From: Rhizaria sp. SCN 62-66
Lineage: Eukaryota
DNA: 64,000 nucleotides
Direction of reading: 5' to 3'
NCBI GenBank assembly: GCA_001724265.1
Contig: MEDY01000003.1
Location: 62,001-126,000 of the forward strand
Part shown: positions 27,501-64,000 of the stretch, in pieces
Numbering within the stretch: position 1 is the stretch's first letter
Layout of the letters: each line of letters begins with the position of its first letter
Notes under the pieces: generated by a model
The model's database searches: none
What the model was told of the DNA's origin: nothing
The model's input: the letters and a program-made list of their open reading frames with translations, nothing else
Translations under genes and position numbers: made by a program

Positions 27501-30500
27501 CTCCTCGTCAGACGTGATCTGGTCGACGGTGACGTAGAAGTGCTGCTTGAGCGCCTGGCCGAGAGCGCGGTCGAACCACAGACGGTCCTGCATCGACATG
27601 AGACGGTCACCGAAGACACGGTACATCTCGTGCGCGAGCAAGTGAATGAGCTCGTTGGCCTCCTCGAACTGGTCCTTGTTGGTCTGCATCACGCCCTGGA
27701 ACACCTTGCCAACGTCGCGTAGGTTGAACGTGTAGTGCGCCTTGGCCGGGGTCGGCAGCAGCGTGGTGACGACCTGCTCATACAGGCCCACGGTCGCGTT
27801 GACGATGCCCTCGCCGAGCTTGGCGATCTTGGCAGGGAACGGCTTGAGCCACCACGACAGCACGGGCTTGAACAGCGCCTTAAGCGCGCCCGAGTCGTAA
27901 GGCGTCAGCGTCAGGTGGTTGAAGTGGCGCATGTAGCGCGGCGTGATGGGGTGACGGCCACCGCCGGGAGGGCCCATGGTGGCCACGAACTGGCAGTCGA
28001 CGATCTGCGTGAAGGCGTTGTTGCGACGGTTGTACCAGCCGCCGTAGTCCATGTACTGGCGCAGCAGCTCGATGGGGGCCTGTGCGCCGTACTTGTCGGG
28101 CGCGGGCATGTTGAGGTCGTCGACGCAAATTACGCAGCGCTTCGAAGGCGGGGGGCCGAGGGCCTGGACGCCGGGCAGGCGACGGCGCTCGAGCTTGAGG
28201 TCGATGATATCCTGAGTCTGGTTCGCGGTGGTGCGCGCAGAGAAGGAGATGAACATGGGGATGTATGCCGTGCCGGAGAGCTCGCGGAGCAGCTTCTGGC
28301 TGACGATGTTGGTCTTGCCCGTGCCGGTGGGACCGACGAGGGTGACGTTCATGTTGGCCGTGATGTAGCGCTCGAGCAGCCACGACATACGAACACTCTC
28401 GGACGTGGGCACGATGATCTCGTGGAATTGCGCTGTCGCGGGGATCGAGAAGGGCGGGATCGTGCGCAGCCACGGGTTCCAGATGTGCAGGTTCTTGTCG
28501 TACATCATGTCGAACACGTTCCAGTCGGTCAGGCTCGGCATCGCGATCGCGTTCTCCGTACTCGACGCCAGCGGCGCAGTCATGATTAGAGAGGCCTTGC
28601 GGGTAGCGAAGGCATGCTCGCGGGACTCGTCAGCAGTGTAGTCGCAGCCGCCGAAGGCGTCGAGGCCGGCACCGGGGGCGGGGGAGAAGAGCGAAGCAGG
28701 GGCCTCACCGGACATGAGGTGGCGGATCAGGTCGCCAACCTTCTCGCGGCCAGCGAGGTCGGTGCTGGCACCAATAGACCAGATGACGGCCATGAAGAAG
28801 AGAGGCTCAAGGCGGTCCGGCTTGATCAGGGGCTGCTTGGCAGCGTTGGCGGCGTTAGCAGCCGCGGCCGAGTTAAAGTCCATCAGACCGAGGTCAGCGC
28901 CGGGACCAGCGGGAGCAGCGGGAGTCGCGGGCTCAGCAGCCTTTGTAGCAGCAGCGCCGTTCGCGCCGTTGCCGTTGGCGCTCGCCGTGCTGTTCGTGGC
29001 AGCGGGGAACATGTCGCTGAGGTACGTCCAGTAGAGGTTGAGCAAGTTCTGGACCAGGATCGTGGCGTTACGAGTGACGACGACATGGCAGTGGTCCGCG
29101 AGGAACGCGAGCACAGGAGGCAGAACCCAGTTGCACAGGCCCTGGATATAGTCGATGTGCTCAGAGAACTCGGGCGCGGCCGCGAGCAGGCGGTTGGCCC
29201 ACGACTTGAAGACAGGGCGCCAGCCAAGCTGGTGAGGCTCGCAAAACACCATGCCACAACGTGAGACGGTGGCCGGGGAAGCGACAGCGAGGTCAGCAAC
29301 TTCGAAGATCATGGACATACTGTTAGTAAGCTTGATCTGCTCGGAGTTGGCCAGGCAGAGCTTCTTGTTGTCATCGAGCACGGTATTGAGGTTCTCAATC
29401 CAGAGGGCGTCGACAGGACCATCGAACACAACCCACTGCAGGTGCGCGGGGCGGTACGCGAGCGCAGGGAGCGAGCCCGCAATGGTGGCCTGCAGAGCCG
29501 CGTTGTTGCTCGTGAGCGCCGCCGCGGGAAGCAGGGCGAGCGTCTCAGCAGGCAACTCCGCGACTGAGGCGGGCGCGGGGGTGGCGGCGTTGGCCTCTGC
29601 GGAAGCAGCAGCCTTGCGCATGACGACGGGCAAAACACCGTCCGTCCACTCGTGCGTGTTCGGGTCGTCCGCACCGTAGATCTGGTCCAGAGTAAGCGAC
29701 TTGGGGTTGATGAACTTGACCTCGACGACGCCGCACGAAGCGCGGGTCGAGCCGGCGGACGCGGAGACAGTCATGGGCTGTGCGCGCGACGCCGCGGCCT
29801 GTGCGGTCGACGCGGCGGTCTGCGCAGCGGCCTGAAGGGCGGCGGCGGACTTGCCCTTGGCCTTGGAGGCGAGGTGCGCGGCCTGGATGGCAGCAACGGC
29901 GGTGGCCTGGGCGTCGGCCAGGTGCGCGGAGGTCATCTTGGATAGGGCCTGGGAGAGGGTCTTAAGCAGAGACGACTTGCCGGACATAGTGCCACCGACG
30001 AGCATGAGACCGTGACGAACTTGAGTGGTGTCGTAAAGCTCGATACATTTGGCCATGAAGTTCTCCGTAGGCTGCAGGTTGTCGGCGGCGCAGACGTCGC
30101 GGCACGCCGTCTCGAGGGCGGCGTGGTCGCGGCCGGCGATGACGGAGCCCGGGAACAGGTCCTTAATGAGGGACATGAAGAGCGGGATGTCGGCTGTGGT
30201 AAACTTGGGCACGTTACAGTCGTAGATCGAGCGCAGCACGAGGCGCTCCTCCGAGACCTCAGGCGAGGCGCGCTTGTTGCGGCCGCAGGCGAGCAGCACG
30301 GCGTTGAGGTTACGCATACCGAAGTCGTAGTGGTCCTGCGACGAGAGCTGCTCGGACGAGAGACGGAGGCAGGCAACGATCTTGCGAGCGAGCTCGCGCG
30401 CAGTGGCGTAACCGAACGCGTAGAGCTTGATCTCAGCAATCATAGCGTAGTCGGGAATCATCATTGCGACAGTGCGGAACAGCGACTTGAGGTTGTCGGG

Positions 30501-33500
30501 AAGCTCGGAGCGACCCGCATAACCGGGATTCATGGTGATGAAGACGGAGCATGTGTGTACAAGGCGCAGGTTGCTGCCCTCGAAGTGGAACGTTGGCTTG
30601 CGCTCGAACACAGCGCGCTGGATGGTCGAGATCTGCTGAGCGATGACGGAAAGCACTTCAACTTCGATACGGTTGAACTCATCGAAGCAGCACCACGCGC
30701 CGGTCGCCGCGAGACCCTTGAAGAACTTGGCCATGGCACGGTGGTTAAGCGAGTCGGAGCCGTTGAAGACAACACACTGAATGCCGACAGCCTTAGAGAG
30801 ATCCTTCGTGGTCTCGGTCTTGCCCGTACCGGCGGGACCCTCAGGTGCACCGCCGAGGTTGAGGTGGAAGGCGGACATGAGCGTGCGGAAGCAGCGGTCC
30901 GTGAGCGGCGTGATGACGAGACGTGTCATGTTGCCGAGATACTCGTATCCGTAGTCCATCTTGGCGTTGATGATGCGCACAGTCATGGTGCCGTTGGCAA
31001 CCATCTTCTTCTTCTGGACCGCAAACTGGGGCAGCTTCGACATTGCAGTCACCTCATCAGCCTTGGCCTCCATCGCCTCGCGCGCAGCGGCTTCCTCGCT
31101 CTGGCGCTGAGCAAGTTCGGACAGAGCATCCTCGTACGCAGCAGCGCGGGCAAGCGCGACCTCGCCGCCGGCGCCAGCGCCCGCAGCAGAATCAACACTG
31201 TTAATCGAGGCAGTGGCGGCGTCGAACTCGTCCTCGGCGCCCAGCGCGAGCTCGGCCTTGCGGACCTTCTCCTCAGCCTCCTTGACCGTGAGCAGCACAG
31301 CGGCGTGCGCAGCCTTGGCCGCGAGGGCCTCGGAGCGCAGTGCCTTGAGCTCAACGAGCTCGGCGGCGCAGAGCTGCGGCGACACGACGACCTCCTCGGT
31401 CAGTGTAGTGTCAAGCACAATGTCGGCGTCCATCGAGTGGGTGTTGGCGGTGGTCTTCTTGCCGGGCAGCGCCATGGAGTTGGCACCAGCGGCGTTGCCG
31501 TCGCTCTCCCAGTAGTAGCGCAGCTGCGAGAGCCACTCAAAGTCGTTGTGGTCGCGCACCTGCTCGCGGATGAGCTTGGAGACGACGTCACGCGCGTGCA
31601 CGTCGAGCACGAGCAGGGGCTCGAGGGTGAGGCGCTTTAGCGCGGGCATGTCGCCACGAACGAGCTCGACCAGGTTGCTGAGCTGGCGGTTGAGCATGTC
31701 CTCGAGCTGTTCAAGGCCCTTGAAGCCGCGCTGGGTGAGTGCAGTAGTGACCTCGCGCGTCCACATGAGCTGGGACACGGTGAGGACGGACTGCGACGTA
31801 AGAGCGGGCTCGAGAATCCAGTCGTTGCGCTTCATCGTGACGTAGTCGCCGATGGCGCCACGGGTGTTGCGCTGCAGAGTCTGCTTCATGAGGCGCTCGA
31901 CCTCGGCGATCCACACCTCGACGTTGCCACGCTTGGCGCCCTCGTTGGGGTCGACGTGCTCGTTAAGTGGCACGATCTCACCGTCAGACGAGGTCATCGC
32001 AGTGATGATCTGCTGCTCAGGAGTAAACACAAGCTCGTGCATGGCGTCGAAAATCTTGGGCAGGTGCGCCTGGATGGCAGTGGCGTCCTTGGTCTGGGAG
32101 AGGATCGAGAGGAGCTCGTCGTTGGACAGGAAGAAGAAGCGCGGATAAGCCATGCGCTTGGTCTCGAGGTACTCGTTGAGGCCGCGAGAGATGGTCTCCA
32201 GCAGCTTGTTAGACTCCTGGAAGGTCTTAAGCAGGTTATCCGTCTCGGACACGAGATCCATGATAAGCGGAGTCTTGAACGCCGTCTCCATGGTCTTGCG
32301 CCAGTACGTGTCGACGACGCCGAAGCGACGCGCCTCGATGGGCATCTGGCGCATAATCTCGTCCGAGTTGAAGATGGGCTCAAGGTAGAGCCAAGTCTTC
32401 TGGCACAGCAGCCACTCCTCCATGATCTGCGCAGTCAGCTGCAGACGCGTCTCCCACTTCTTGGTGCGCGCCTCGAAGAACTTGACGTACGGCGAGCCGC
32501 GGATGCCCTGGGTCTTCATGATCTGGTCATCAAGCAACACGAGGATCTCCTCGTAGCCCTTGACGATGTATGTGCCCGTCCTCTTGTAGGGCTCGATCTT
32601 AAGCGCCATGTCGCGCCACTCGCGGCGCATGCGCTCGAGCAGCGTCTCGAGCTGGAACTCCTTTGTCGCGTACATGCACAGGTCCTCGATCTCCTGCTTG
32701 TGCTGCATGACGTCGAGCGTGAGGATGTGCGACAGTGTGAGCTCGTGGTCCACCGTGATCGGGGGCTTGCCAGGCGCAAGCAGCGTCGACAGCTCGTCCC
32801 AGTGGCGCGGGCGCAGCGTCTTGGGCGAGAGCCAGTGAATGATGGGGACGATCTCCTTGAACGCGGCGATCTTGTTCTTCATCTCAGTCGCCACGCGCGC
32901 GGGCTTCAGACAGTCGATCGACAGGAACTCGCGCTCGAGACGGTACATAAGCTTGTACCAGTCGTTGACATCCTTCTCGATCTGGGGGGCGTCGAGATCG
33001 ATGAACGAGCCGGTCATCCATTGCGTGTAGCTCGAGTTGAACAGCGCGGTCGTTGACCACAGCGCATAGTACGGCTTGAACTGTTCGCGCACCTGAGTGA
33101 GCTCGGGGTACTCCTGGGGCTGGTCGCCGAAGAGCTGGTCGCGGGTGTTAAATGACTGCACGAGACGCTCGGCTTCGTCCAAACGCTCCTGGAGCTGGTC
33201 GACGCGGGCGGAAGACGCCTCCATCTGAGCCGAAGGGCCCATGCCGAGGTCCTTGAGCTCGGCGACCTCCTTGGACGCGGCCTCAACGTCGTTGACGAAC
33301 TTCTCCTGCTCGTCGAGCAGCTGCTTCTGGAAGAAGCGGTTGTCGAGCTCGATCTGGATCTTGGCGTCCTCGAGCGCGGCGAGGATGAGCACGGGGTACG
33401 ACACCGTGGTCCACGCCGTGGAGAAGACCGACTGCGGGACGTGGTAGCGGAACTGCGCCAGGCAGTCCATCGTCTGCTGCATAACGGCGATAGCGCGCTG

Positions 33501-36500
33501 GAGAGCGGGGATCTCGGTATCCTCGATGCTCGCGGCGCGATCCTTGAGCTCGGCGAGGTCCTGCACGCGCAGAGACTTGGTCTTGACGCGGTTGATCATC
33601 TCCTCGTAGCTCGCGGTGAGCTTCGCGCACTGCTCCTTGACCTGGTCGACAAGCCCATCAAGCAGGCGGTTGGCGACTTCGCGCGCCTTGGCCACGAGCT
33701 GGTCCTTGAGCATCTTGACCTCGACCTTGACGAGCGCGAAGGTGACTTCGTTGGGCGACAGCGACTGGACCTCGCTGATCATGACCATCAGCTTCTGGAT
33801 CTCCGCGCGGGTCTCCTCGAGGGTGTGCTTGGGGCGTTCCTCCTCGTCCTCGTCCTCCTTCTTGTTGTTCGCGTTGGCATCGCCCTCGCCGGCGGCGGGC
33901 GAGGACCAGAACGACATCTTGGCGCGCTCACGGTCGAGACGGGCGAGCTCCTCCTCCTCGGCGCGCTCCTGCTCGAGGCGCATACGCTCCTCGGCCGAGA
34001 GGTGCAGCACTTGGTGCTCGCGCTTGTTGAGGATGGAGAACCAGTCCTTGACGAACTCGTCCGTGTCGATGGGGAGGATCTTGCTCGCGTACTCCTGGTA
34101 CAGCGACGCCAGCGCGCGGGGACGGATCGTGTTGGCGAGAATGTTGAGCGAGAGCTCCGACTGCGCCTCGGCGACGGTGTTGAAGAGGTCGGGCGCGGAC
34201 GACTCAGAGCACAGAGGGAGCTCAGTGAAGCCGAGCAGTGGCGTGACCTCGCTCTGGATCTGCGAGATGACCGCGAGCTTGGATGCGGAGATGATCGAGC
34301 AGATGGTCGACTCGACGCTGTCGAGGCTGGGCAGGAACACGACGTCGGTCGCGGACGAGCTGAGCTTGAACACAAACAGCGGGCGGCACGCAGCCGACAC
34401 GTGGGGGCCTTCGAGGAAGCCCGCCAGCAGGCGGCGCGGCGTGGGCAGCATCATGGCCCGGCCGAGCCACTCCTGTGCCTCGACGACAGGGTAGTCGCGC
34501 CAGGACGCGGGCAGGATCGTCTCCACTGGGTCCAGCGGCGGCGCGGCCTCGGCGTCCTCATCGTCATCGTCGTCCTCTTCGTCCTCTTCGTTCTCCACGC
34601 CGTCGTTGCCGTCGGCGTCGGCGTCGCTATTGGAGCCGAGTAGACTCGCGGATGAGCTGCCGCCGTCGAGATGCTTGCCACTCGCGGCCGCGCCGGAGGC
34701 AGAAGCAGCGGCGGAAGCCGCGGCGGCGGCGGCAGCGGCGTGGTACGAGCCGTCCGCAAGCGCCTTCTCGAGGTCGACGAAGCGGCGCACGTAATCGTGC
34801 AGGTCGGGGTCCTGGTGCTTGCGGAACGCGGTGACGTAGGCCTCGAGCGAGTCGGTCATCAGCGCCGCCAGCTGGTCGCGCAGCAGGAACGTGAGCAGCG
34901 TCACAAAGGCCTTGAGACCGGACGTCTTGTACTTGCTGTGGTCATTGACGAAGAGCGCGAAGACGTGAGAGAGGTTGTCACGGATGAGGTTGATGCAGAG
35001 CCCGCGCCAGTCGTTGAGAATGGCGTCCTTGGCGGTGCGGAACTGCATCTCCTGCATGTCGTGGTATTCGTACAGCGTGATGGGGAACGACACGCGCGCC
35101 GGGTCGGCCTCGAAGAAGGCAAACTTGCGCAGCGACCACCACGCCTTAAACAGCGTCAGGATCACCTGCGTGCACTCGGGGTGAACGGAGAAGTGCTTCT
35201 TCTGGATCACGGCCGCAATCTCCTTGATCGGGTATGCCGCGACGCGGTACTTGGACGCGGGGTTGAACGGCTGCGCGGAGACGGGGCCCGCGGCGAGCGC
35301 GGTGGCGCCCTCCGCGCCCGCGGCCTGCGCTGCGGCGACGGCGGCGGCCTCGACGTCGTTGAGGCCGAATTGCACGGCGACGGGCGTCACAGGCACGAGC
35401 ACGCGCGCGTCGACGAGCGAGTCAAACACACTGTGCGCGAGCGCGGCCTCGGCCTCGTAGCCCTCCTGGCCCAGCGCGCGCCAGAGCTCGGCGTGGCTCT
35501 GCAGCTGCGCCACGAGCGCCGGGTGGCGGCGCTCGATGAGCCACTGCAGCAGCGTCGACGCGGGCACGTCTGCGGGCCGCGGGGGGCGGAACACGCCCGT
35601 GACCGTGGGACGCGGCCGGTTGGGGAACGCCGCGAGCAGCACCTCCTGCCAGGCCTTCTTGAGCGTCTTGATCACTGCCAAGTGCGGGACGAGTGGCAGC
35701 GGGGCAAGCGCGGGCAGGTTGAGCTCGTGCACGCGGGCCTCTTGCTGCGCGTCGTGGCGGCGGCAGTACTCAACCACAGCCAGCTGCGACGCCAGTGTGT
35801 AGTCAGACCGCACCTCGCGCAACAACGCGTCGGTGGACGTCTGGTTGCCGAGCACGAGGCGGCGCGACGACACCATGAGCTTGGCGAGGATGCCGTGCAG
35901 CGTGGCTTGCTGGATCGATGCAAACAACGACGTGGGCTGCTGCTCAATGAAGGCGCGGTAGCGGCACAGCACGCGGGTCTCCTCGCGCAGGCGCTTGGCG
36001 CGCTCAACGCGGGCCAGGAACGCCGCCTCGTCCTCGGCGTCAAACATGATCGACAGGCGCTTGACGAGCTTGGTCTTGTCGTTGTGGTTGAAGCGGATGC
36101 AGAAGTCCCACGTCGCAGGGTCATACGACAGCACCTGGCACGGCTGCCACGACCACACGCGGTTCAGGAAGAACAGAGCGCGCGCGGGCGTGCCCTGGAG
36201 CAAGCCGGACGAGCCAGTGGCAGCGGAGGCGGACGTATCCACGTCGTGCTCAGCGGCAGTCGACGCGCCGGCACCAGCGGCACTGCTGCTGTTGGTGTCG
36301 AGCGAGAGCGAGGCGAGCGCGGCGTCCTGGCCGAGGCGAACCCACTCCTCGGGGGAGCGGTCGAGCTCCTCGGTGTCGAACATCTCGAGCGGGAGCGAGT
36401 CGAGCACCACGCGCTCTGACACCGCCAGCGCCTTCGGGTTGGGGAAATAGAGGCCGAAGTTGTGCGTCGTCGTCGGAGGCGGAACGCCGGAGCCGGGGCT

Positions 36501-37019
36501 GGAGCCGCCGGGGGCGCCGCCGCGGCTCGGGGACGGCGAGCGAGACGAAGGCTTGTTGGTGGAAGAGAAGTCGCCCTCGGGGTCCGCCGCTGCGGTCGAG
36601 GAAGCAGTGGCGTGCTGGATGGGAACGCCGGAACTGCTCAAGGAAAAGGTCTCGCGCACGGGACGGGGTTCGGTGGGCGGCATGGCCTTGGAGAGCATCT
36701 TGGGGGAGCCAGCGAAAGAAGGGATCACGACCTTCTTGACAGCCTGGAGCTTTTGCTGCAGCTTGTCAATGTTGGCCGTGGTGGCCTGCGGGGTCATGCG
36801 GCGCTTAGTGAGCGACGCCTCCGCGCGGTCGCGCCATGTCATGCCGAGCTCACCCGTAGTGGAGCCGGGCTTGACACTGTCGGAGGAAGGCGGGTGCGGG
36901 CGCAGGGGAGCGGCGGAGGACGCCGAGGGCTGAGCACCGGCAGCATCGCCAGTGGTGGCCATGGGACCGGTGAAAGCGCCGCGCAGGAACGCGTCCTCGG
37001 TTGTCCGGTAGTTGGACAT
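21582..37019 (-). CDS. DNAH1: Axonemal inner-arm dynein heavy chain, DNAH1-like, 5,145 aa, single exon
   Basis: P1 GPAGTGKTETTKDL, GAWCCFDEFNRI, P2 GGTMSGKS, P3 GPTGTGKT, P4 GMGGSGKQS, stalk/MTBD region and C-terminal HWVKRGVALLCQLD. The N-terminal LPLEMFDTEELDRSPEEWV block resembles the DNAH1 subfamily as I recall it. Ends TAA. Confidence 0.93.
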   Translation of the reverse strand: MSNYRTTEDAFLRGAFTGPMATTGDAAGAQPSASSAAPLRPHPPSSDSVKPGSTTGELGMTWRDRAEASLTKRRMTPQATTANIDKLQQKLQAVKKVVIPSFAGSPKMLSKAMPPTEPRPVRETFSLSSSGVPIQHATASSTAAADPEGDFSSTNKPSSRSPSPSRGGAPGGSSPGSGVPPPTTTHNFGLYFPNPKALAVSERVVLDSLPLEMFDTEELDRSPEEWVRLGQDAALASLSLDTNSSSAAGAGASTAAEHDVDTSASAATGSSGLLQGTPARALFFLNRVWSWQPCQVLSYDPATWDFCIRFNHNDKTKLVKRLSIMFDAEDEAAFLARVERAKRLREETRVLCRYRAFIEQQPTSLFASIQQATLHGILAKLMVSSRRLVLGNQTSTDALLREVRSDYTLASQLAVVEYCRRHDAQQEARVHELNLPALAPLPLVPHLAVIKTLKKAWQEVLLAAFPNRPRPTVTGVFRPPRPADVPASTLLQWLIERRHPALVAQLQSHAELWRALGQEGYEAEAALAHSVFDSLVDARVLVPVTPVAVQFGLNDVEAAAVAAAQAAGAEGATALAAGPVSAQPFNPASKYRVAAYPIKEIAAVIQKKHFSVHPECTQVILTLFKAWWSLRKFAFFEADPARVSFPITLYEYHDMQEMQFRTAKDAILNDWRGLCINLIRDNLSHVFALFVNDHSKYKTSGLKAFVTLLTFLLRDQLAALMTDSLEAYVTAFRKHQDPDLHDYVRRFVDLEKALADGSYHAAAAAAAASAAASASGAAASGKHLDGGSSSASLLGSNSDADADGNDGVENEEDEEDDDDDEDAEAAPPLDPVETILPASWRDYPVVEAQEWLGRAMMLPTPRRLLAGFLEGPHVSAACRPLFVFKLSSSATDVVFLPSLDSVESTICSIISASKLAVISQIQSEVTPLLGFTELPLCSESSAPDLFNTVAEAQSELSLNILANTIRPRALASLYQEYASKILPIDTDEFVKDWFSILNKREHQVLHLSAEERMRLEQERAEEEELARLDRERAKMSFWSSPAAGEGDANANNKKEDEDEEERPKHTLEETRAEIQKLMVMISEVQSLSPNEVTFALVKVEVKMLKDQLVAKAREVANRLLDGLVDQVKEQCAKLTASYEEMINRVKTKSLRVQDLAELKDRAASIEDTEIPALQRAIAVMQQTMDCLAQFRYHVPQSVFSTAWTTVSYPVLILAALEDAKIQIELDNRFFQKQLLDEQEKFVNDVEAASKEVAELKDLGMGPSAQMEASSARVDQLQERLDEAERLVQSFNTRDQLFGDQPQEYPELTQVREQFKPYYALWSTTALFNSSYTQWMTGSFIDLDAPQIEKDVNDWYKLMYRLEREFLSIDCLKPARVATEMKNKIAAFKEIVPIIHWLSPKTLRPRHWDELSTLLAPGKPPITVDHELTLSHILTLDVMQHKQEIEDLCMYATKEFQLETLLERMRREWRDMALKIEPYKRTGTYIVKGYEEILVLLDDQIMKTQGIRGSPYVKFFEARTKKWETRLQLTAQIMEEWLLCQKTWLYLEPIFNSDEIMRQMPIEARRFGVVDTYWRKTMETAFKTPLIMDLVSETDNLLKTFQESNKLLETISRGLNEYLETKRMAYPRFFFLSNDELLSILSQTKDATAIQAHLPKIFDAMHELVFTPEQQIITAMTSSDGEIVPLNEHVDPNEGAKRGNVEVWIAEVERLMKQTLQRNTRGAIGDYVTMKRNDWILEPALTSQSVLTVSQLMWTREVTTALTQRGFKGLEQLEDMLNRQLSNLVELVRGDMPALKRLTLEPLLVLDVHARDVVSKLIREQVRDHNDFEWLSQLRYYWESDGNAAGANSMALPGKKTTANTHSMDADIVLDTTLTEEVVVSPQLCAAELVELKALRSEALAAKAAHAAVLLTVKEAEEKVRKAELALGAEDEFDAATASINSVDSAAGAGAGGEVALARAAAYEDALSELAQRQSEEAAAREAMEAKADEVTAMSKLPQFAVQKKKMVANGTMTVRIINAKMDYGYEYLGNMTRLVITPLTDRCFRTLMSAFHLNLGGAPEGPAGTGKTETTKDLSKAVGIQCVVFNGSDSLNHRAMAKFFKGLAATGAWCCFDEFNRIEVEVLSVIAQQISTIQRAVFERKPTFHFEGSNLRLVHTCSVFITMNPGYAGRSELPDNLKSLFRTVAMMIPDYAMIAEIKLYAFGYATARELARKIVACLRLSSEQLSSQDHYDFGMRNLNAVLLACGRNKRASPEVSEERLVLRSIYDCNVPKFTTADIPLFMSLIKDLFPGSVIAGRDHAALETACRDVCAADNLQPTENFMAKCIELYDTTQVRHGLMLVGGTMSGKSSLLKTLSQALSKMTSAHLADAQATAVAAIQAAHLASKAKGKSAAALQAAAQTAASTAQAAASRAQPMTVSASAGSTRASCGVVEVKFINPKSLTLDQIYGADDPNTHEWTDGVLPVVMRKAAASAEANAATPAPASVAELPAETLALLPAAALTSNNAALQATIAGSLPALAYRPAHLQWVVFDGPVDALWIENLNTVLDDNKKLCLANSEQIKLTNSMSMIFEVADLAVASPATVSRCGMVFCEPHQLGWRPVFKSWANRLLAAAPEFSEHIDYIQGLCNWVLPPVLAFLADHCHVVVTRNATILVQNLLNLYWTYLSDMFPAATNSTASANGNGANGAAATKAAEPATPAAPAGPGADLGLMDFNSAAAANAANAAKQPLIKPDRLEPLFFMAVIWSIGASTDLAGREKVGDLIRHLMSGEAPASLFSPAPGAGLDAFGGCDYTADESREHAFATRKASLIMTAPLASSTENAIAMPSLTDWNVFDMMYDKNLHIWNPWLRTIPPFSIPATAQFHEIIVPTSESVRMSWLLERYITANMNVTLVGPTGTGKTNIVSQKLLRELSGTAYIPMFISFSARTTANQTQDIIDLKLERRRLPGVQALGPPPSKRCVICVDDLNMPAPDKYGAQAPIELLRQYMDYGGWYNRRNNAFTQIVDCQFVATMGPPGGGRHPITPRYMRHFNHLTLTPYDSGALKALFKPVLSWWLKPFPAKIAKLGEGIVNATVGLYEQVVTTLLPTPAKAHYTFNLRDVGKVFQGVMQTNKDQFEEANELIHLLAHEMYRVFGDRLMSMQDRLWFDRALGQALKQHFYVTVDQITSDEERTMAAETETGIPGERLSALSRSLYADFTNPRVTKKQYSAVKDMGELGTVLEGYLADYAAFERTKMTLVLFQDAIEHVSRISRIIRQPFGNALLVGMGGSGKQSLTKLAAFIGGYTLFQVSLTKAYSVNEWRDDLRDVMRKAGIQNKPIAFLISDAQIKHESFLEDINNILNNGEVPNLFPLEDYMPIIEQVLPDARKAGKAESNASVFNFFVERCRHNVHVVVCMSPVGESFRNRLRMYPSLVNCTTIDWFHPWSSVALQTVATRFLRDIDLDAQLKSGLVDICVTMQESALKLSADFEASLKRVNYVTPTSYLSLIQVFRSLFESKRSEISASQHKYETGLTKLNETALLVKDMQVQLEQLQPQLIESSKETQTLIKTIEEQSAQVAETRKIVAAEEAECNEQAEIASKIKEECETQLALAMPAVNQALKALKVLTRHAIDELKVMKAPTPGILLTAQALCIMFGVEPHKVGQVGSKTDDYWEPCRKKLLSDTQLIKRMTNYDKDNIPNSVINRIRPFTDNPDFAPSKIAHSSFAAEKFCRWVIAMEVYDRINKQVLPKRIALEQAEQSLLTVRANLAAKNQELQDIQTLLDDLNNQYEMASHKKKSLEMQVAECSARLDRAEKLVSGLRNEKDRWLERATQLAADYHNVVGNIMLSSGAIAFLGPFTLAFRDRCLKNWVSELQKRHIACDADFSLHRVLGDPVLIRKWGIQSLPKDDFSTDNAIILTKALRFPLLIDPQEQASKWIRSMEADFAAAVAAQTGGAPQALRVIKMTDDQFMRTLSLAITEGAPVMIENVGSVVDPALDPLLNKNTFRQSNRTMLRFGAEIIEYNENFRLYITTKLSNPVFKPETSTSVTIINFMVTPEGLEDQMLGRAVRHDDPDTEQTRNELVLKSAENQRQLAMIEDKILDHLLKSAGHLLDDEDLVNTLQKSKQASRLIEKRMADAARMQENIAKTRTEYQPLAAVVSNLFFCVQDLAQIDPMYQNSLRWYQAVFHKAMQEANPSSSSLIRIKNIQNTFIHLLYNAISMSLYERHKLLFSLMLTLRLLNGRGEVDDRELRFLLTGGASVVDPAGVPPNPTGSATKSQAQQKAAAPGAAADNTLRDAVSTRRRSVTALDVGDKEQREAAAGHAPASADKWLPDIAWLQLLELDRLPAFTGIVRHFSENLKLWRAFAEHPDPYRCAMPGAWGRVLTAPLHRLVLLRVFRPDKLVAGVRTFVSDQIGADFVNPPMFDLASAFADSDPVTPLIFLLSQGVDPIKDIISLAEQKGMNTPDKFIRISLGQGQGPLAEAAIREAVDRGSWVLLQNCHLLVKWLPMLHKIVDELNPSTAGPTFRLWLTSMPSADFPASVLQNGIKMANEPPKGIRANVLQSFRGFGVTPGANDWVEDAKRPEELKKLFYGLCFFHAVVQERRKFGPMGWNIHYQFTEGDLAISKLQLKEFVNMYDAPPYKALRYLIGQLNYGGRVTDDWDRRCLSVMLDDHINEYVVSDDQYSFDCPTTSTSAAASAVAAARAMLPPTITGASAAAGAAGAAGAAPAPAAPTASYPVPPPGADLRRIRQHVRNLPAEDSAEVFGLHENVNITVAISEAQTLFEWALTVQQHAVSAPPPANSAAAASAAAHAAEKEKEAAATAAAAAAAAASASASEESKDDAAQGGHAVVSDRDRTVASMAAEMELAIPAPFDLQHVAAKFPVSYDDSMNTVLVQELQRYNKLLNVVRSSLRDLQRALKGEIVMSGKLDSMASDMYDAKVPALWAESAYPSRKPLGPWVADLKRRIDMFATWVDRGVAPSVFWFSGFFFTQSFLTGVLQNYARKYKIAIDAISFDFQVMPHIAADHPVPPADGCYIHGLFLEGARWDSSQGAILQAQGQTTSAQSAQAYVGGVLAEPQPRQLYSDMPVIWLQPRETRKISANRLAYACPVYKTSARHGVLTTLGQSSNYIIAINLPSEKEERHWVKRGVALLCQLDT

Positions 37020-37750
37020 AGGCCGAAAAAATCTGTCAAAAGTGTTGCAAGTCGAGTCTCGAAGAGGGGGGAAAGTCTAAAGAGAAAAGAACAAGCTGCA
37101 ACGCAGGTGCAGAGGAGGGCGAAGACAACAGCGGGCAGAAGAGAGGTCAAATAACAAGAAGAACGCTGTGAGATTCAAATTCAACGATGGTGCAGAGTAG
37201 ATTGGTTCTTTAATCGCACATGCATTGCATGACAATTCAAGAGGGCAACACCATCGGTTGGGATGGATGCGGGACGATAAGCCAAGTTTGAACTGGCGAG
37301 CTTCAGAGCGAAAGCAAAAACAGGTGTGGAACTAGGCATAGACGCATCCTAATAAAGTCAGCAGAATACTGCACGATAAACCATGCGTCAACACATATTC
37401 CATTAAAATGCCATCGTATAACAACATCGACAGCGGACACCGTGATCGCGTGATACAAATCGCATTCACCGGGAAAAACGGTCGCTCGGTGCTCACAGTC
37501 CCCTCTCACTGGTCAAGCCACAAAGCAGCACGCCAGACCCGAATCGGACCGCCTTTTCAACCTTGCTTTGCACTTGAATCCCTCGTTTCTTCGACATTTT
37601 GACCTCGTCCTGATATAAACCCGCATTAATGGAGAACTCTCCTTAAATAATATTGTCATAACCTGTATGAATACTGATATGTGGACCTGATCTTATCGTG
37701 GCCCCCTTGACTTGGCTTCGGTCTTTTGCCCTGTGCAGTCCCTCGTCCCG
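37020..37750. promoter_or_regulatory. Divergent intergenic region between dynein and ALDH (probable shared promoter)
   Basis: Lower-GC 731-nt gap between head-to-head start codons; inferred from position only. Confidence 0.5.
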
Positions 37751-39805: not shown

Positions 39806-42800
39806 TCAGTACTCGTCAATATCGTCCATGCTTCCACGCCTACCAAGTCGTCCCTTGCGGCGACGTTCGTCCCACTTCGCAGCCAGTGCATCCGGCGACG
39901 CCGCGCGCGGCCCGGCGTCGGGATTCTCGCGCAGAAACATCACCTCATCGTGGCCGGCGATCGTGCCGGGACCGTGGGAGCGCGCAAGTCCGCTGACGAC
40001 GCGACCTTTATTGTTACTTGCAAAGGCAGAGGTGGGGAGGCCAGAAAAACCGCCCCCACGCTTGCTAGAAGCGTTGCTCGCGACATTGATACCGCGATTG
40101 TGAGCGGCATTGGTTTTGTCAACAATGGCGCCGCCGACCATCGCTGAAGGGCGCGATGTGAGTAACGTATGCGCAGGTGCTAAGTGCAATGATAGCCGCA
40201 GCTGCTGCTCGTCCTGCTCTTGGTTCGCCTCAAGCTCGGAATACATACTGGCAGCAGCCGTCGCCGCAGCAGAGGCCGCAGCCGCTGCGTTACCTGTCCC
40301 CGCGCCAGTGCCAGCGCCAGCGCCGCCACGGGGACTAAACGCGCTGTAGCGGGCCGAGAACGAGCCACCCTGGCCGCCGTGTGGCGTATTGCCGCTACCG
40401 GGGAACCGAGGTGACATCGCACCGGTAGTATCCGCGCTTGCTACAGTCAAGTCGGAAGCTTCAATCTCTCCAAGGAACGCATTGATCTGGCCGTGGTATC
40501 GGGAGTTGAAGATGGCGAACATGAACTCTTTGAATGTTGCAGGTTCGTTCGAGGTCAAGTGTGCGTTTGATGTCACTGAAATAAACCTCTCATCAGACTG
40601 AAACACTCGCAGCATCTAAGTATGAAACAAAAGCGGGGTGAAATTAGAAAAGAACAAAGCGTGAGATAATCAGGTGAACACAAACATAACTATCGGTCAT
40701 TGGTGTCTCTAGTGATTTTGCTTTCTTTGGTTTGACGTACGTCTTGCCTCCGCTGCACGTATACACCACCGTGCTTAACCACTGCGAGGTTGCCGCAGGC
40801 ACTCCGTCCACCTGCAGCAGGCGCCTTGGCCGCACGGGCAACGTTTTGGGCAATCAGCTGCAGGGTGGACAGTGCGCTTTGACCCGCGTCCGCACTTGCA
40901 CTGTCATAAGCGTCTGCTGCGCCAGATCTAGTGTCATTGTTGTTGGCTGGCTTTGCGGCTGTTGCTGCGGCCTCTGCAACAAGCTTCGCCATATAGTTCG
41001 ACTGGCATGACGCAAGCCAGGACTCGCGCGCTACCGCAACAGCCGCGCTCCGCGAAGAGCGCAAGTGCGCAGGCAGCGACAGGTCTGCAGCCCACTCCAC
41101 GAAAGAGTCCTACAAATGAGTGCATAAACATGAAACATAATCATCATGGCATCATGACAGGTTAGATATTTTGTGACAATGCAAAATCAATCGGCAAAAT
41201 GGCTTCATTGTGATGTCAATCGTCTCAACCAACTGTAGAACTCTCGTATCCGTACCCTCATGTCAGTGACGAGCGCGAGCGTGAGCTTCGCGGGGCACGT
41301 TAGCGCAATCATCCGTTCAATATCCTCCTTCCCGGCCTGTGGAAAGTACATCTTAAGCAGCTGTGGCAGCGTAATGCGGTTGTTAGAGAAGCGCGAGAGC
41401 GTCGAAAGCGCTGGCACGCTGCCGCCGCTGCTGTTGCCACCGCCAAGGCCACCCAGACTGGAGCCTCCGAGAGAGCCTCCAGAGCTGTGATGGGAGTCGA
41501 AGTGACCGAGAGAACTGGATATTGACGCAGCAGATGCGGTGCCGGAGGCAGAGGCGGCTGCTGTGTAGTCGGTGTGGATGTCAGCGCCGCGGATGCTAAG
41601 TGATCGGACAAAGAGATTTTGAGAGAAAAATCGCTATGAGAAGGAAATAATACCAAAACAAACATATGCAACAAATTCATGCGTGAACCAAACATTAGGG
41701 CATTCAAAAACCAATGTGCGTACCCAGTGAGACTGTCTACGGTGATGAACCCCTTCCTCTCGGGATCCAGCGACACGAAGGTCCGGTACGCAGCCATGAG
41801 CCGCCGCCGGTGGTCCAGCCGCGTCGCCGAAAAGCGCAGGCCGAGCGCGCGCGGGTTGATGCCGTACATGGCGCCGCGCTCGTGCGCCGCGGAGGTGGCG
41901 CACCTGGCGGCCCCGGGGAGTCCCGCGGCCGTGCTCGCGCTGGCGCGGTTACTGCTCTGGGCAGTGCTGGGGCGGATCGGTGCATGTGAGGTCGCACCAG
42001 CACTGTGCCTCACACCAGCTGTCGAGGCTGATGCAGGCCGAGCCTTGTTATCGCTGGGGCCAGCAGAAGCAGGTCGATGTTGCTGTTTGTTAGCAGATGA
42101 CGCTGGTGTTGTTGCTGACGTCGGTGACTCGGTTGCCACGAGTAACCCAGTGTCAACATCGTCAGCTTCGCTGTTAGCAGCAGAGTGACTGTAAATGTAG
42201 GTACCGTCAGTGTGAGCAGCGGCCAGTGGCGACACGGGCAAAAGGTTTTTCCCCGGAAATGTAACCAGCAGCGCGTGCCACAGCGGCCGCGCCGCGGCGT
42301 CGCGCACCCGGTCGGACAGCAAGAGCTCGTTGGACGTCTCGCCCCAGTGCAAAACCTGTGCACGCAAAACGCCGAGTAGAAAGACAAAAGTGAGCATTGG
42401 TCGGAAATTATAAAGGTGAAATCCACTCTGGTTTCATCAAGACTCATAAACGTACCGGTGCGCGTAGAAACGGGTGCATAAGCACCACTGCGACGAGTTG
42501 CTGCGCCGACACGGCGCCGTGCTGCTGCACGGCGGCCGTGCGGGCGTGGTGCGCGGTCGGCGCCAGCGCCAGCGCGGCGGCAAGGCGCACAGCCGGGTGC
42601 GTCGGCGGCAGGTAGGAGCGCGGCGCGCGCGAGCAGCAGCGGATCGCAGACTGCACCTCAGCCACGCCGCTGCCGGCGCCGCCGAAGCCGCCGTACTTCG
42701 AGCTGGAGTAGGCTGCGGCGAGAGCAGCGGGGTTGGGGTTGTCCGGATCGTCATTCGCCGTGTTGCTGATGTTGCTGTTAAATGCTTCTGCGTCTGAGAA

Positions 42801-43964
42801 GAGCTGTTCGGGACCACTAGAGTTAGTCCCGATGCTCGCGTTTAACCTGTTGTTGGTAGTGTTGCTATTGTTGTTCTTGTTGGCGCTCGCGTCGGAGTCG
42901 GAGTCTGCGGCTGCAATGTCGCTGGCGATAGAGCGGGCCAGAACGTCCGGCGTCAGAGTCGCTACGATGGCCAGTTCAGTCGCAAAACGCACTATGAAGC
43001 GCAAACCAAACAAAAACAATGATACGACGAGGTGGGGTAATGATGGCTATTTTGTGAAGCTTAAATGAATCTCGCTACGTGTACCTTTGATTATGCGAAT
43101 TCATATGCGCAGTCTCCTGTGAGCTTACCTAGATCTGTGTGGCTCGGCACTGGCATGCGGAGAATCTTGCAGCCAGCAGTGACAGCAATAACAATGAGCG
43201 TCTCGAACGGGGTGTAATTCATGCGAAATTCGTCATCGAAGTTGAACATCTCAAACAACATCTGTACAACAAAGCACGTAAAAAAAAGACAAATATAAGA
43301 AGTTCCTCATGTAGATAAGCACGGTTTCTGCTGAATCACAAGCTTTCATCTATCATATTCAAAATTGATTTCGTTTCTGTGTGATATATCACCTGAATAA
43401 ATGTCAAACTTACTGCAATCTTCTGGGTCGCAGTGCACTTGCGAGCAAGCAGAATCATGGCTACGAATAGCTACTGGACGTTGAATGCCAGGCGGGACGG
43501 CGCGGGGTCAAACATGGCCCAAATATAGCGCAGCTGCTCATCTGTGATGGTTGGAACAAGAGATACGAGCGCGGCATGAGTGAGAGGAAGGTAAAGAGAT
43601 GAAGTTGAGTAACGTCTGCACGATAACAACAAGCAGTCGGACTGGGACGCATAGCAACGGCACGTAGGAATAATGTTCGGGTGTCGTACATGTGAAGTGG
43701 GGAAACACGCGCATGAGTGTGTGTGCGTTTGTTTGCCACCCATGACCCTTCTGGATCGAACGGAACTTGCGCTCACGACCACGAATGCGACCCAACGCTG
43801 AACCGAGTGAAAGCAAGGAATATCACAAAAAGGAGTGGGGATGGTGAGATTAAGCTGCGGGCACCGGGTACAAAAAGAGCTGGTTAAATGTGATATGTGT
43901 GCGTACGCTCAGAAATTAGCATGAGGTCCTGCTCGAGCTCGGGGGCGCCGTGTTGGTTACCCAT
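39806..43964 (-). CDS. EF-hand-like protein with an N-terminal MG (possible myristoylation), 1,045 aa, containing an in-frame TAG at codon 87; exons 43964-43907, 43797-43740, 43615-43414, 43261-43129, 42991-42456, 42355-41724, 41595-41256, 41109-40741, 40615-39806
   Basis: Eight GT-AG introns with mutually consistent phases (total 3,138 nt). Starts MGNQHGAPELEQ. EF-hand-like segments: IWAMFDPAPSRLAFNVQ*LFVAMILL, QKIAMLFEMFNFDDEFRMNYTPFETL, YRTFVSLDPERKGFITVDSL, TFKEFMFAIF. Ends TGA. Confidence 0.72.
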
Positions 43965-44410
43965 AGTGAGATGCTCAACGGCTAGAGGCCGACTAAGGTG
44001 GCTGTTCTGGTTCTTGCTAAAAGCCTACGCAATTATTATATTGAAAAGGAATTATTAAGTAAGTATACATTTTCACAATAGGACCTAAACTTGCGTTGAC
44101 GGAAAAATGACGGTATTCAGCTTGGAAAAATCAAGGGTACCTCGAAGCCCCTCGACTCGAGGCTGTTGGAGCTCTAGACAGTGCGACCAACTCTCCACCA
44201 TGAACCAATCACATCACAATCGTCAGCTGGTATCACGTTCCTCTTGAATAGCATCAACGCATTAGCGTATCTATTTTATTTAATTTTTTTCCTCATCAAC
44301 CCTTCTCTATCCCTGTCTTTGCTCCACCTTGCCACAGCTCTCACACACTCTCGACAACCAGCAACGACTCTTCCCCCATCCTCAGTCTCCACACACGCAC
44401 GCATCCCAGC
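43965..44410. promoter_or_regulatory. Divergent intergenic region between the EF-hand gene and TFIP11
   Basis: 446-nt AT-rich gap between head-to-head genes; inferred from position only. Confidence 0.5.
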
Positions 44411-57100: not shown

Positions 57101-58363
57101 CACGCAGCCCCGTGGCAGCACTCGGCTACCGCCGCGCTCAGCCGGAGCTACGATAGCACTGGGAGCCCCGGCGCTGTCGTACTCTCGACGCAAGGCCAGG
57201 GGACTGAGACTGCTTTGACTGCGCCTAATGCGAGTGCGGCGAGTGTTGTGTCTGCGGCGGAGGACTCTGCTGCAGTGGCTGCAGCTGCGGCTGCCTTTGC
57301 GCGCCACGTCTCCATGACGCCGCTGTCCCCGCAGCTGCTCCCCCACCAGCACCAGCCTCACCACAGCCGCGCGGCCTCGAGAGCCAACTCCCGCCCCTTC
57401 TCCCGCATCAACTCGCGCCCCGGCTCCCGCGTCGGCTCCCATCCTGTCGCCGGCTCTGTCTCTGGCGCGGTGGCCGCGCCGCTGCCGCTGTCGGCGCTGC
57501 GCAACGAGGCGAGCGAGCGGCGCCACGTGGCCGCCACCGCGGGCGCCGAGTCGCGCGCGCGGGCAGAGCTGGCCGCGCGGTCGCGGGCGCGGGCGCGCGC
57601 GCAGTCGCAGTCTCGCTACGCGCAGTCGCAGCCACAATCACAGACTCAAGAACCTGACGCCAGTGCAAGCAGTGCGATTGCGGGTGCGCCTGTTATCGTG
57701 GACTGGGATAAGGCGCGCTCGCGCCGTGCGCTGTCGCCGTTGTACCAGCGCCCGCCTACATACATTCAGGACCCTTACGTGACGGCGCAGGGCCCATATA
57801 TCGCGGTCGCTGCGTCGTCTAAGGACCTCAGCGCGACTGCTGCGCTCGACGCTCAGCTGCTCGCCCACAGTCACTTGCTGACTGGACCGACTGCTCACGG
57901 TCACTCCACCGCTCACGGTCACTCTGCGGCTGTCGACGCTGCCCACAGTCGCTCGCGCGTGCACGAGCAGCTGCACTCGCGCGAGACCGTGGCGGCCGCG
58001 TCGCGCCGCGTCGCGCTGCGAGCCGCCGCGACCGCCGCTGCCGCGGCGGCGGCGGAGGCCAAGGCCGAGGCCGCGGCCGAGGCCGAGGCGGCCGCGGCTG
58101 CTACTGTGCTGCGCACGCGCAGCGTTGCAGTCAAGGCCGCCTTTGGCACCGCACAGGCGCCACCTCGCCAGTCTGCGTCGAGTGCGCATGGCAGCAACGC
58201 GACGGGTCCCGTGAACCCTGCCTCTGCGACGGTGAGCGGAGCCGGGCTGCTGTAGCAGTGGGAGACGGCCAAGGCGCTGCAGAGCGCCGAGGGCGCCAAC
58301 GGCAAGGCGCGCCGCGTGCTTGAACACGCGCGGCGCGCGCTCGCGCTGGCGCACTCGAAGTGA
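51185..58363 (+). CDS. N-type kinesin with a very long low-complexity tail; 2,356 aa to TAG 58253-58255, or 2,392 aa if that TAG is read through to TGA 58361-58363
   Basis: Motor motifs IRVLCRLRP, FSFDRVF, FAYGQSGAGKT (P-loop), SYIEIYND, NDRSSRSHAIF (switch I), VDLAGSE (switch II), HIPYRSSKLT. ATG at 51185. The 3' end is uncertain (see findings). Confidence 0.88.
56950..56991 (+). repeat. 18-nt tandem duplication encoding TALTSA twice in the kinesin tail
   Basis: gactgcattgacttccgc gactgcgttgacttccgc gactgc. Confidence 0.75.
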
Positions 58364-60727: not shown

Positions 60728-61183
60728 TTACGGGATGATGGGGCGCGGGGGGTTCTTGATAAAGTCGAGGGGGAAGGGGACGTTGCGGCCGAACATGTTG
60801 CCGCCGGGCAGGCGTTGCACTGCGCACAAGAGAGCGAGACAGGGTGATAACAAGAGAGCAAAATAGAGGGAAAGTGAGCGATGACGAGAGGCGAGCGCGG
60901 GAGACGTAAGAGATGGGCTAAAACCGGTGTCAAAGAGGAGGGGAAAGGACGTACCGCGGTAGGGCTCGCCGGAGAGAGTACGGAGAGCGTACTCCTCGGC
61001 CTCGCGAACAGCGAGCTCGATCTGTCCGGGGTCCTGAAGGTCGCGCTTGGCCTCGAAGGCATCGCGGGCCTCGCCACACTTCTCGGCGTAGCGGTGGCGG
61101 CTGCAGTGGAACCAGTCGAAGTAGTTCTTAAGGATGCGGCGGTACACCGTCTTCACACGAGCAGCATGCGGGGTGACCGACAT
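60728..61183 (-). CDS. NDUFB9: Complex I LYR-family subunit, NDUFB9/B22-like, 106 aa; exons 61183-60955 and 60819-60728
   Basis: VKTVYRRILK (LYR-like), W, ARDAFE, EPYR and PGGNMFGRN motifs. Phase-1 intron G|GTACGT...GCGCAG|TG. Ends TAA. Confidence 0.82.
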   Translation of the reverse strand: MSVTPHAARVKTVYRRILKNYFDWFHCSRHRYAEKCGEARDAFEAKRDLQDPGQIELAVREAEEYALRTLSGEPYRGTSFPLLFDTGFSPSLTSPALASRHRSLSLYFALLLSPCLALLCAVQRLPGGNMFGRNVPFPLDFIKNPPRPIIP

Positions 61184-61804
61184 TGCGCGCTAGAAACAAT
61201 AATGAACGAGGAGATACAAAAACGGGAAGGAAGCGGAAGCGGGCGTGAGCAAGTTGTTCGTCGGTCAGTCGCTTTTCGCATTCGAGCAAAACGGAGTCTC
61301 TAGCACGGCAGACTTGGCGTTGATCGTCATGAAAGTAAATAAAATAGTATCAATATGATGTATATCATCCATAAATGTATATTGCAATCTCACATGAGCA
61401 CAACTGCGCGCGCTATACCTCCGCCAATCCGCCAACGAGAAAATGACCAATTTCCCGTCCCCGACTTTTTGCGAACCTCGCCTGATCGCCGCCCACAGTC
61501 AGTCAGCAACTTCGTATCATCACTTTCAAGAGCACATAACAGCGTAAACTTAGCTCTAAGAGATACAAAGGGATATTTTTGAGTTGTGATATGATGCGTG
61601 TTTTATTGTTTTTAAGTTTTATTAATGATGCGTTCGTGTTGTTCATAAGTATCTGTGTAATTACGTTTTTGCTGAAGCAGTGTCGTGCTATCATTTGTGT
61701 GTGTTTGCGTGTGTTTAAGTAAGCCAAAAACCATTATCAATCATCTATCCTTCCATTCATCCGCTCTCCTTTTCGCTTCACTGTTCGTGCGTGCATAGAC
61801 GCAA

Positions 61805-63471: not shown

Positions 63472-64000
63472 ATGTCGGGCCCCAGTCCCGACCAATGTCG
63501 CTTCGTCGAAGCGGCCTTTGAGGGTGGTACGTTCCATGTTTATCTTCTACCTTATACCCATGCAGCAACTGTATCCGCTCTCATATTGCCCTTTATAAGC
63601 CTGCTCACTTTACTCTTACTTTCCCCTGCGCTCTGTTGTACAAACAACAGACCTCAAGACGCTGCAGATGCTGATGCCTGTCGTGACGATTAACGGCATC
63701 GACTCCAACTCTGATACCGCACTTATCGCCGCCGCCATTGCGCGTCGCGCCGACATTGTCCGTTACTTGGTCGACAACCGCGCGTCGGTCAACTACCGCA
63801 ACAAGTTCGGCCACACCGCTTTGCTGTGGGCCACGTCGGCACAGGACAAGCCCATCGTGTCGTACCTGCTGCACGTCGGCGCCAACCCCAACGTCTTCGA
63901 CGAGGACAAGATTACGCCGCTGCACCTCGCCGTGCGCGCGGGCGACACGGACCTCGTCAAGGAGCTCCTCGCGGCCGGCGCGAACCCTGACCCGCAGGAC
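63472..64000 (+). CDS. Ankyrin-repeat protein, 3'-truncated; exons 63472-63526 and 63651->64000
   Basis: MSGPSPDQCRFVEAAFEG|DLKTLQML..., then repeats DTALIAAAIARRADIVRYLVDNRASVN, GHTALLWATSAQDKPIVSYLLHVGANPN, ITPLHLAVRAGDTDLVKELLAAGANPD. Phase-1 intron G|GTACGT...CAACAG|AC. Confidence 0.88.

Follow-up and report, generated by a model that had tools for sequence, protein, structure and literature searches.

An in-frame TAG in an otherwise intact gene of Rhizaria sp. SCN 62-66, tentatively read as a recent tolerated nonsense change

Within a 64,000-nucleotide (nt) stretch of the Rhizaria sp. SCN 62-66 genome (assembly GCA_001724265.1, contig MEDY01000003.1, positions 62,001–126,000 of the forward strand; hereafter ‘the window’, numbered from its first letter), a gene of roughly 1000 codons on the minus strand carries an in-frame TAG close to its 5′ end. 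Codon scores are coding-like on both sides of this TAG, which therefore sits in sequence that is now, or was until recently, translated in that frame. We tentatively read the TAG as a stop, arising from a recent nonsense change that is tolerated either with restart at an ATG at 43458 or in what has become a young pseudogene. A recent nonsense allele had been the fallback of an initial annotation of this DNA; we rank it first among the readings considered, whilst giving it less than even confidence.

Results

Structure of the gene and position of the TAG

Read on the minus strand, the local sequence runs TTC AAC GTC CAG TAG CTA TTC GTA GCC ATG ATT CTG, with the TAG at 43473–43471. This is codon 87 of the nine-exon model drawn in the initial annotation, and both that placement and the 19 codons said to separate the TAG from the donor GCA/GTAAGT (donor at 43413) are borne out by the minus-strand letters. 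The features of the gene are listed below, together with codon scores from a model trained on the window’s other genes (9828 training codons); a version of the model with antisense frames as background was dropped, AT-rich noise having ranked top.

43907–43964, minus strand: exon 1, which starts ATG GGT AAC (MGNQHG...) and ends in phase 1 at donor GTACGC; +22.3 bits (43908–43964 scored)
43740–43797, minus strand: exon 2 of the initial annotation, 58 nt, uncertain; coding-like in frame (+11.7 bits), donor GTGGCA off consensus
43414–43615, minus strand: exon 3 as drawn in the initial annotation; coding signal in the TAG frame from near 43541
43546–43542, minus strand: alternative exon 3 acceptor, CACAG, at the start of the coding-like signal
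43471–43473, minus strand: in-frame TAG, the same in contigs of sequencing runs X2, X3 and X4
43456–43458, minus strand: in-frame ATG five codons past the TAG, context gccATGa, read from the sequence; possible restart or true start
43129–43261, minus strand: exon 4 (MLFEMFNFDDEF...); codon score +32.7 bits
42456–42991, minus strand: exon 5; codon score +118.7 bits
41724–42355, minus strand: exon 6; codon score positive
41256–41595, minus strand: exon 7; codon score positive
40741–41109, minus strand: exon 8; codon score positive
39806–40615, minus strand: exon 9 with terminal TGA (39808–39806); its open reading frame (ORF) is in a public protein collection, in 7 contigs

Joining the nine exons by script yields 3138 nt, equivalent to 1046 codons including the terminal TGA, with a single internal stop at codon 87. 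Downstream of the TAG, where some 960 undamaged codons had been claimed, we count 958 sense codons and the final TGA, interrupted by six introns and free of any other lesion; the exon after that donor, exon 4, opens at 43261 with MLFEMFNFDDEF. The six introns 3′ of the TAG are convincing: they measure 100–152 nt, have a GC fraction of 0.32–0.42, begin in every case with GTAAG or GTACG and end in YAG after T-rich tracts. The exons of the gene have a GC fraction of 0.48–0.66, with codon scores that are positive and frame-specific.

The 5′ part of the model (exons 1–3) is uncertain, since the donor of exon 2 is off consensus and the first 24 codons of exon 3 (43614–43543), a CT-rich segment, are neutral in codon score. 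An alternative model, in which exon 1 is joined straight to 43541, is also in frame and makes the TAG codon 43 of 1002; indeed, the TAG stays in frame in every model that retains the segment 43541–43474.

Coding signal on either side of the TAG

The 23 codons preceding the TAG score +19.4 bits in its frame, versus -16.6 and -25.3 in the other two. Of 4374 non-coding windows of 69 nt, 2 match this value; off-frame windows from the target gene’s own exons never do (0 of 1556), but 13.8% of 783 in-frame windows of the same exons do. The 19 codons that follow the TAG score +13.4 bits in frame. What we see is thus a stop codon in frame, within sequence that independent measures mark as coding, and reproduced in DNA, as expected of a premature stop.

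Recurrence of the TAG in public data

Logan contigs extend across the TAG, with no other letter at the site, in run X2 (study P2, 2025; 42857–44300) and run X3 (study P1, 2016; 43397–43839); the figures for run X4 are identical to those for X3 and probably derive from the same data. Depth at the site is low (1.7–6.6), and the contigs are error-free across hundreds of bases. A base-call error, left possible by the initial annotation, is unlikely: the X2 and X3/X4 contigs show 0 differences, and an error private to one assembly is made improbable by their agreement. The eukaryote itself occurs in bioreactor, wastewater and activated-sludge metagenomes, and the locus is present in runs X1–X4.

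In the poly(A) metatranscriptome run X5, no contig crosses 43141–44300, the TAG site included, and none lies over the 3′ end of the target gene. Five X5 contigs lie elsewhere in the gene (40662–43005) and cross, unspliced, each of the four exon–intron borders within their reach; they look like DNA carry-over or pre-mRNA rather than mature mRNA. They differ from the window at 4 positions in 1167 nt, suggesting a slightly different strain; one of these differences, 42964 A>T, would turn a GTA (Val) codon into GAA (Glu).

A second in-frame TAG in a kinesin gene

A further TAG interrupts a kinesin frame on the plus strand, the motor domain of which occupies ORF residues 174–463:

58253–58255, plus strand: second in-frame TAG, at the end of the 2361-codon kinesin ORF; read in the window sequence
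58256–58363, plus strand: 35 more codons in the kinesin frame, to a TGA at 58361–58363; GC 0.75, GC at third codon positions (GC3) 0.94, +33.0 bits

The score of this 35-codon extension compares with -39.0 and -31.0 bits in the other two frames. Past the TGA, GC falls to 0.47 and every frame is negative, as is also the case for the 35 codons after the TGA or TAA stops of seven other genes (GC 0.22–0.49, all frames negative). The extension contains a perfect 12-bp GC hairpin (58307–58338), and the 120 nt from the kinesin TAG fold at -69.1 kcal/mol (z -2.84, equalled by 1 of 200 shuffles), whereas the 60 nt after the target TAG show no such tendency (z +0.40; 130 of 200 shuffles fold as well). 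The letter C follows both TAGs. A 24-nt ‘intron’ (GTGAGC...TGTAG) that would span the kinesin TAG was rejected as far shorter than the confident introns of the target gene (100–152 nt).

Stop codons across the window

The initial annotation had proposed a general reassignment of the code, among other explanations. This is contradicted by the window’s other genes, for which 17,140 in-frame codons contain 0 TAG, 0 TAA and 0 TGA (dynein, kinesin up to its TAG, TFIP11-like, aldehyde dehydrogenase (ALDH), VPS28, fibrillarin, a giant ORF and orf591); as TAG behaves like a forbidden in-frame codon elsewhere, the long dynein and giant frames included, ordinary termination is favoured. A scan for stops with 25 stop-free codons on each side returned 604, amongst which the two TAGs are the clearest coding-flanked, non-antisense cases; a few weaker TGA and TAA rows passed the same scan and were set aside on the presumption that they lie off frame or antisense within known ORFs. 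A raw search for stops with long open frames on both sides gave mostly frames antisense to the dynein gene, and was discarded.

Codons one step away from TAG are abundant in the window’s genes (GAG 679, CAG 560, AAG 491), and in the training codons Glu is written GAG 459 times versus GAA 37 times, GAG being one base from TAG. With codon usage so rich in GC3, TAG is the product of 67% of single-base nonsense changes, such that it is no surprise to find TAG in both cases instead of TGA or TAA. The nine gene ends, a sample too small to carry weight, comprise six TGA and three TAA if kinesin ends at the TGA at 58361; otherwise, one of the nine is TAG.

Homologue searches

Several searches were made for relatives that might carry a sense codon at the site. 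Word searches returned 2 candidates for exon 3 (over 104–333 amino acids), 71 for exon 9 (‘longer’ search) and 8000 low-complexity candidates for the kinesin tail, none of which scored. With HMMER, exon 3 gave five matches among 1.84 billion representatives, none orthologous; four were bacterial repeat proteins that share DPAP and have inflated multi-stretch scores, and were judged spurious. In scans of JGI metagenomes, neither the exon 4 ORF nor the TFIP11-like neighbour (picked so that 10-kb flanks would span both TAGs) retrieved a relative.

The organism’s own ORFs are present in a 15-billion-protein collection (ENA, Logan, JGI/IMG, MetaClust), in 3–7 contigs each, the longest of 141,735 nt, and fall into clusters of 1–3 members. 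The cluster alignment, made for the exon 9 cluster only, contains three members that are identical in all overlaps, with those of 256 residues beginning 13 residues later. Exact look-up in the collection did not find the ORF ending at the TAG, nor the kinesin ORF from its first ATG (51185) or from four downstream ATG starts. Judged by these searches the gene appears to be lineage-specific, with no relative among the collections covered to show a residue at the TAG.

Resemblance to EF-hands

The TAG had been placed inside an EF-hand-like motif. That description is partly supported: it suits the entering helix, which does resemble those of EF-hands, but hardly the loop, which does not look canonical; nor is there a match to EF-hands in Pfam or among PDB sequences. 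No EF-hand family of Pfam (EF-hand_1/5/6/7/8) matches exon 3, with the TAG as X, or exon 4 at E up to 10, and at the same threshold all exons of the gene together give just three weak, unrelated Pfam matches. The PDB sequence search returned nothing for exon 3 and, for exon 4, one unrelated chain (filamin, E 1.7); the second EF-hand-like loop that had been proposed in exon 4 accordingly finds no EF-hand match in either database.

The sole database protein that credibly resembles exon 3 is P0003, a eukaryotic protein of 3414 residues with Pfam EF-hands, which combines a C2 domain with repeated EF-hand units of the form ...LEPTLT..QL..LW..FDKNGDG.VSRDEF. Five to six of these align with LVSLVPTITDEQLRYIWAMFD (BLASTP E 2e-4 to 3e-3), and the likeness of exon 3 to the entering helix extends back to about 43572. 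A hidden Markov model (HMM) built from seven P0003 units scores 18.5 bits on exon 3, over ALVSLVPTITDEQLRYIWAMFD only, and ends at the first Asp of the loop.

As EF-hand criterion we took an entering helix and a 12-residue loop in which positions 1, 3 and 5 are Asp, Asn or Ser, position 6 is Gly and position 12 is Glu; in EF-hand loops Glu is usual at position 12, and Leu or Phe at 13. When DPAPSRLAFNVQ is aligned without gaps, its loop positions 3, 5, 6 and 12 are Ala, Ser, Arg and Gln, with the TAG falling at position 13, or at position 12 if a one-residue insertion is allowed. The earlier assignment of the TAG to the loop-ending Glu hence lacks an objective placement, as only the stretch from the entering helix to the first Asp resembles EF-hands. 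On sequence comparison, then, the entering helix appears EF-hand-like, the loop DPAPSRLAFNVQ does not appear canonical, and the gene does not look to be a demonstrable member of the EF-hand family.

N-myristoylated EF-hand proteins of the neuronal calcium sensor and calcineurin-B-homologous types offer a lead: the protein here has a Met-Gly start, a helix ending ...W..FD that leads into a loop, and another helix-loop-helix encoded by the exon after that. It differs from them in having no Pfam or PDB sequence match, in the want of the usual Asp/Asn/Gly pattern in DPAPSRLAFNVQ, and in being a protein of about 1000 residues that is mostly low-complexity.

Discussion

On the reading that we tentatively prefer, the TAG most likely arose when one base of a sense codon changed, the step from GAG being the commonest route in this codon usage; the gene struck would be lineage-specific, low in complexity and about 1000 codons long, in a GC-rich eukaryote from wastewater reactors. 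The N-terminal 42–86 codons would thereby become a short upstream ORF, whilst the bulk of the protein could be made at low level from the ATG five codons on, or from an internal transcript start; alternatively, the gene may be a very young pseudogene. The change would also have to be recent, since the 958 sense codons and six introns downstream are intact. Both TAGs lie where truncation costs least—at codon 43–87 of about 1000 in the target gene, and 35 codons before the end of a 2396-codon frame in kinesin—and such placement at gene ends would be very improbable had TAG been scattered randomly as a sense codon. Tolerated nonsense variants are reportedly enriched near gene ends in population surveys of human and yeast. 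The likeness to tolerated premature stops and young pseudogenes is that of a single stop, one base from abundant sense codons, in a gene otherwise intact, here at the 5′ end with an ATG nearby and in the second case 35 codons from the 3′ end; the difference lies in density, two cases in one 64-kb window being high. If read in this way, the target gene adds one more case to a kind already known, that of premature stops in lineage-specific genes.

Saying this, several observations weigh against a tolerated nonsense change. Two coding-flanked in-frame TAGs in about 11 genes and ~19,000 codons make a high count for a functioning genome; not one of nine gene ends is TAG if kinesin truly ends at the TGA at 58361; both TAGs are followed by C; and the target TAG is present in samples dated 2015, 2016 and 2025. 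Furthermore, a stop at codon 87 with six exon junctions downstream should trigger mRNA decay, making an intact downstream gene surprising unless the event was very recent.

Next in our ranking, though unlikely, is decoding of UAG throughout the organism, with both TAGs translated: either UAG would be a rare sense codon, at an early stage of a UAG-only change that leaves TGA and TAA as terminators, or an efficient natural suppressor tRNA or weakened eRF1 would cause genome-wide amber suppression. Leu, Gln or Glu would fit locally. UAG-only changes have reportedly been described in several phyllopharyngean ciliates as well as in the two organisms compared below. The kinesin gene speaks for such decoding, in that its TAG is followed by 35 coding-like codons and a TGA, unlike the seven other gene ends; if this extension is counted, none of nine gene ends is TAG, an absence that would be no more than weakly unusual were TAG to close between a fifth and a quarter of genes as a rule. 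UAG-only reassignments are known in eukaryotes, among them those of the rhizarian exLh (UAG=Leu) and Iotanema (UAG=Gln), both of which keep UAA and UGA as stops (PMC5304391). Our organism is like exLh and Iotanema spirale in that UAG alone is found in frame, the other eight gene ends being TGA or TAA, and in being an uncultured protist known only from sequence data. The same source gives 384 in-frame UAG in 71 genes for exLh and 204 in 126 genes for Iotanema, that is, several per gene and at conserved Leu or Gln positions (PMC5304391), against which we find two per ~19,000 codons, in unconserved regions, and no TAG in the 17,140 other codons. The many in-frame UAG in conserved genes by which UAG-only codes are defined are thus not seen here. 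CAG and GAG are very common, so neutral synonymous TAG should have accumulated, and the two TAGs that exist are at gene ends rather than spread along genes. The window contains no tRNA gene (ARAGORN) and no Rfam family, though for tRNA genes 64 kb says little.

Two further explanations we think improbable, the second slightly the more so. The TAG could be missing from the mature coding sequence, either spliced out or lying upstream of a true start at ATG 43458; candidate introns run from exon 1 to an acceptor at 43461 (446 nt), or correspond to the 96-nt GTATCT...CAGTAG suggested in the initial annotation. Consistent with splicing, enumeration from ATG 43964 to exon 4 gave 29,148 stop-free GT-AG paths, the best of which by donor consensus takes exon 1 to 43460 in frame; the CAGTAG string around the TAG resembles a tandem acceptor; and exon structure at the 5′ end is uncertain in any case. 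Yet chance alone should yield in-frame paths from 43 GT and 32 AG sites, and all such models would render intronic a coding-like segment (+19.4 bits) that only 2 of 4374 non-coding windows equal. The candidate introns also look unlike the six confident ones, with GC of 0.52–0.55 versus 0.32–0.42 and T of 0.17–0.25 versus 0.40–0.60 in the 40 nt before the acceptor, and the donor GTATCT deviates from the GTAMG present in 6 of 6. The second explanation is site-specific programmed readthrough, in which UAG would be a normal stop but a fraction of ribosomes would insert an amino acid at the target and kinesin TAGs, yielding a little full-length protein in the one case and a kinesin extended at its C-terminus in the other. 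C directly after the stop gives the weakest termination in eukaryotes, and here, as in the readthrough of tobamoviruses and animal genes, each TAG is followed by C and by further coding-like codons in its frame; from the kinesin TAG on, 120 nt with a perfect 12-bp hairpin moreover fold unusually well (z -2.84). Known readthrough motifs are the UAG-CAR-YYA of tobamoviruses and the UGA-CUAG of animal genes, and TAG CTA TTC matches neither, the C at +4 being its only favourable feature. The initial annotation had likened the site to the leaky stop-CUA context, which is described mainly for UGA; CTA does follow here, and no structure is seen after the TAG (z +0.40). At kinesin the hairpin starts 54 nt past the stop, whereas known stimulators lie roughly 8 nt after it. 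Programmed readthrough usually gives C-terminal extensions, which makes the N-terminal position of the target TAG atypical, and a stop at codon 43–87 would throttle a 1000-codon protein. Finally, we consider it very improbable that the UAG is edited to a sense codon in RNA (CAG or UGG, for example) or that assembly or sequencing introduced the same false TAG throughout: X5 offers no contig over 43141–44300 to set against these ideas, but TAG stands in all three contig sets, which derive from at least two studies, and we know of no free-living protist in which editing removes stops from nuclear mRNAs.

If the TAG is a plain stop, it represents an ordinary young nonsense allele in an orphan gene, and a caution for those annotating eukaryotic metagenome contigs. 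Should UAG truly be decoded, the few eukaryotic lineages described with a UAG-only change (exLh and Iotanema, PMC5304391, among them) would be joined by a new one in which the codon is still almost unused; such an early stage would bear on how stop codons are reassigned. The second TAG keeps the case moderately interesting, and public data sets from wastewater and bioreactors contain the organism repeatedly.

Other features of the window

Intron density is uneven across the window, with 7–8 introns in the 4.2 kb of the target gene (39806–43964), one in ALDH, and none in the reading frames of dynein (15.5 kb), kinesin (7.2 kb), the TFIP11-like protein (3.8 kb) or the giant ORF (18.8 kb). The giant frame exceeds 6278 codons (1–21116, minus strand) and extends off the start of the window; a 749-codon ORF precedes it in a different frame, the two being separated by AT-rich, probably intronic sequence. 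These two ORFs match no Pfam family at E 0.001 in more than 7000 codons, and GC3 in the giant ORF is 0.56 versus 0.75–0.92 in neighbouring genes.

The window also encodes a TFIP11-like G-patch protein, an aldehyde dehydrogenase, VPS28 and fibrillarin; an Atlas search with VPS28 placed it no more narrowly than in Eukaryota. Two further genes are likely: one at 60730–61190 (minus strand), for a small protein with a TAA end (105 bits over 141 codons), and one at 63650–64000 (plus strand), an ankyrin-like ORF that runs off the end of the window. The dynein heavy chain is complete (DHC_N2, AAA modules, stalk, Dynein_C), in a single uninterrupted frame of 5164 codons that ends in TAA (21582–37076, minus strand). 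Scanning contigs of prokaryote genomes with this dynein gave four loci (L001–L004) at 30–65% identity, which represent DNA of other eukaryotes binned in bacterial metagenome-assembled genomes (Clostridia, Bacteroidaceae, Phycisphaerales).

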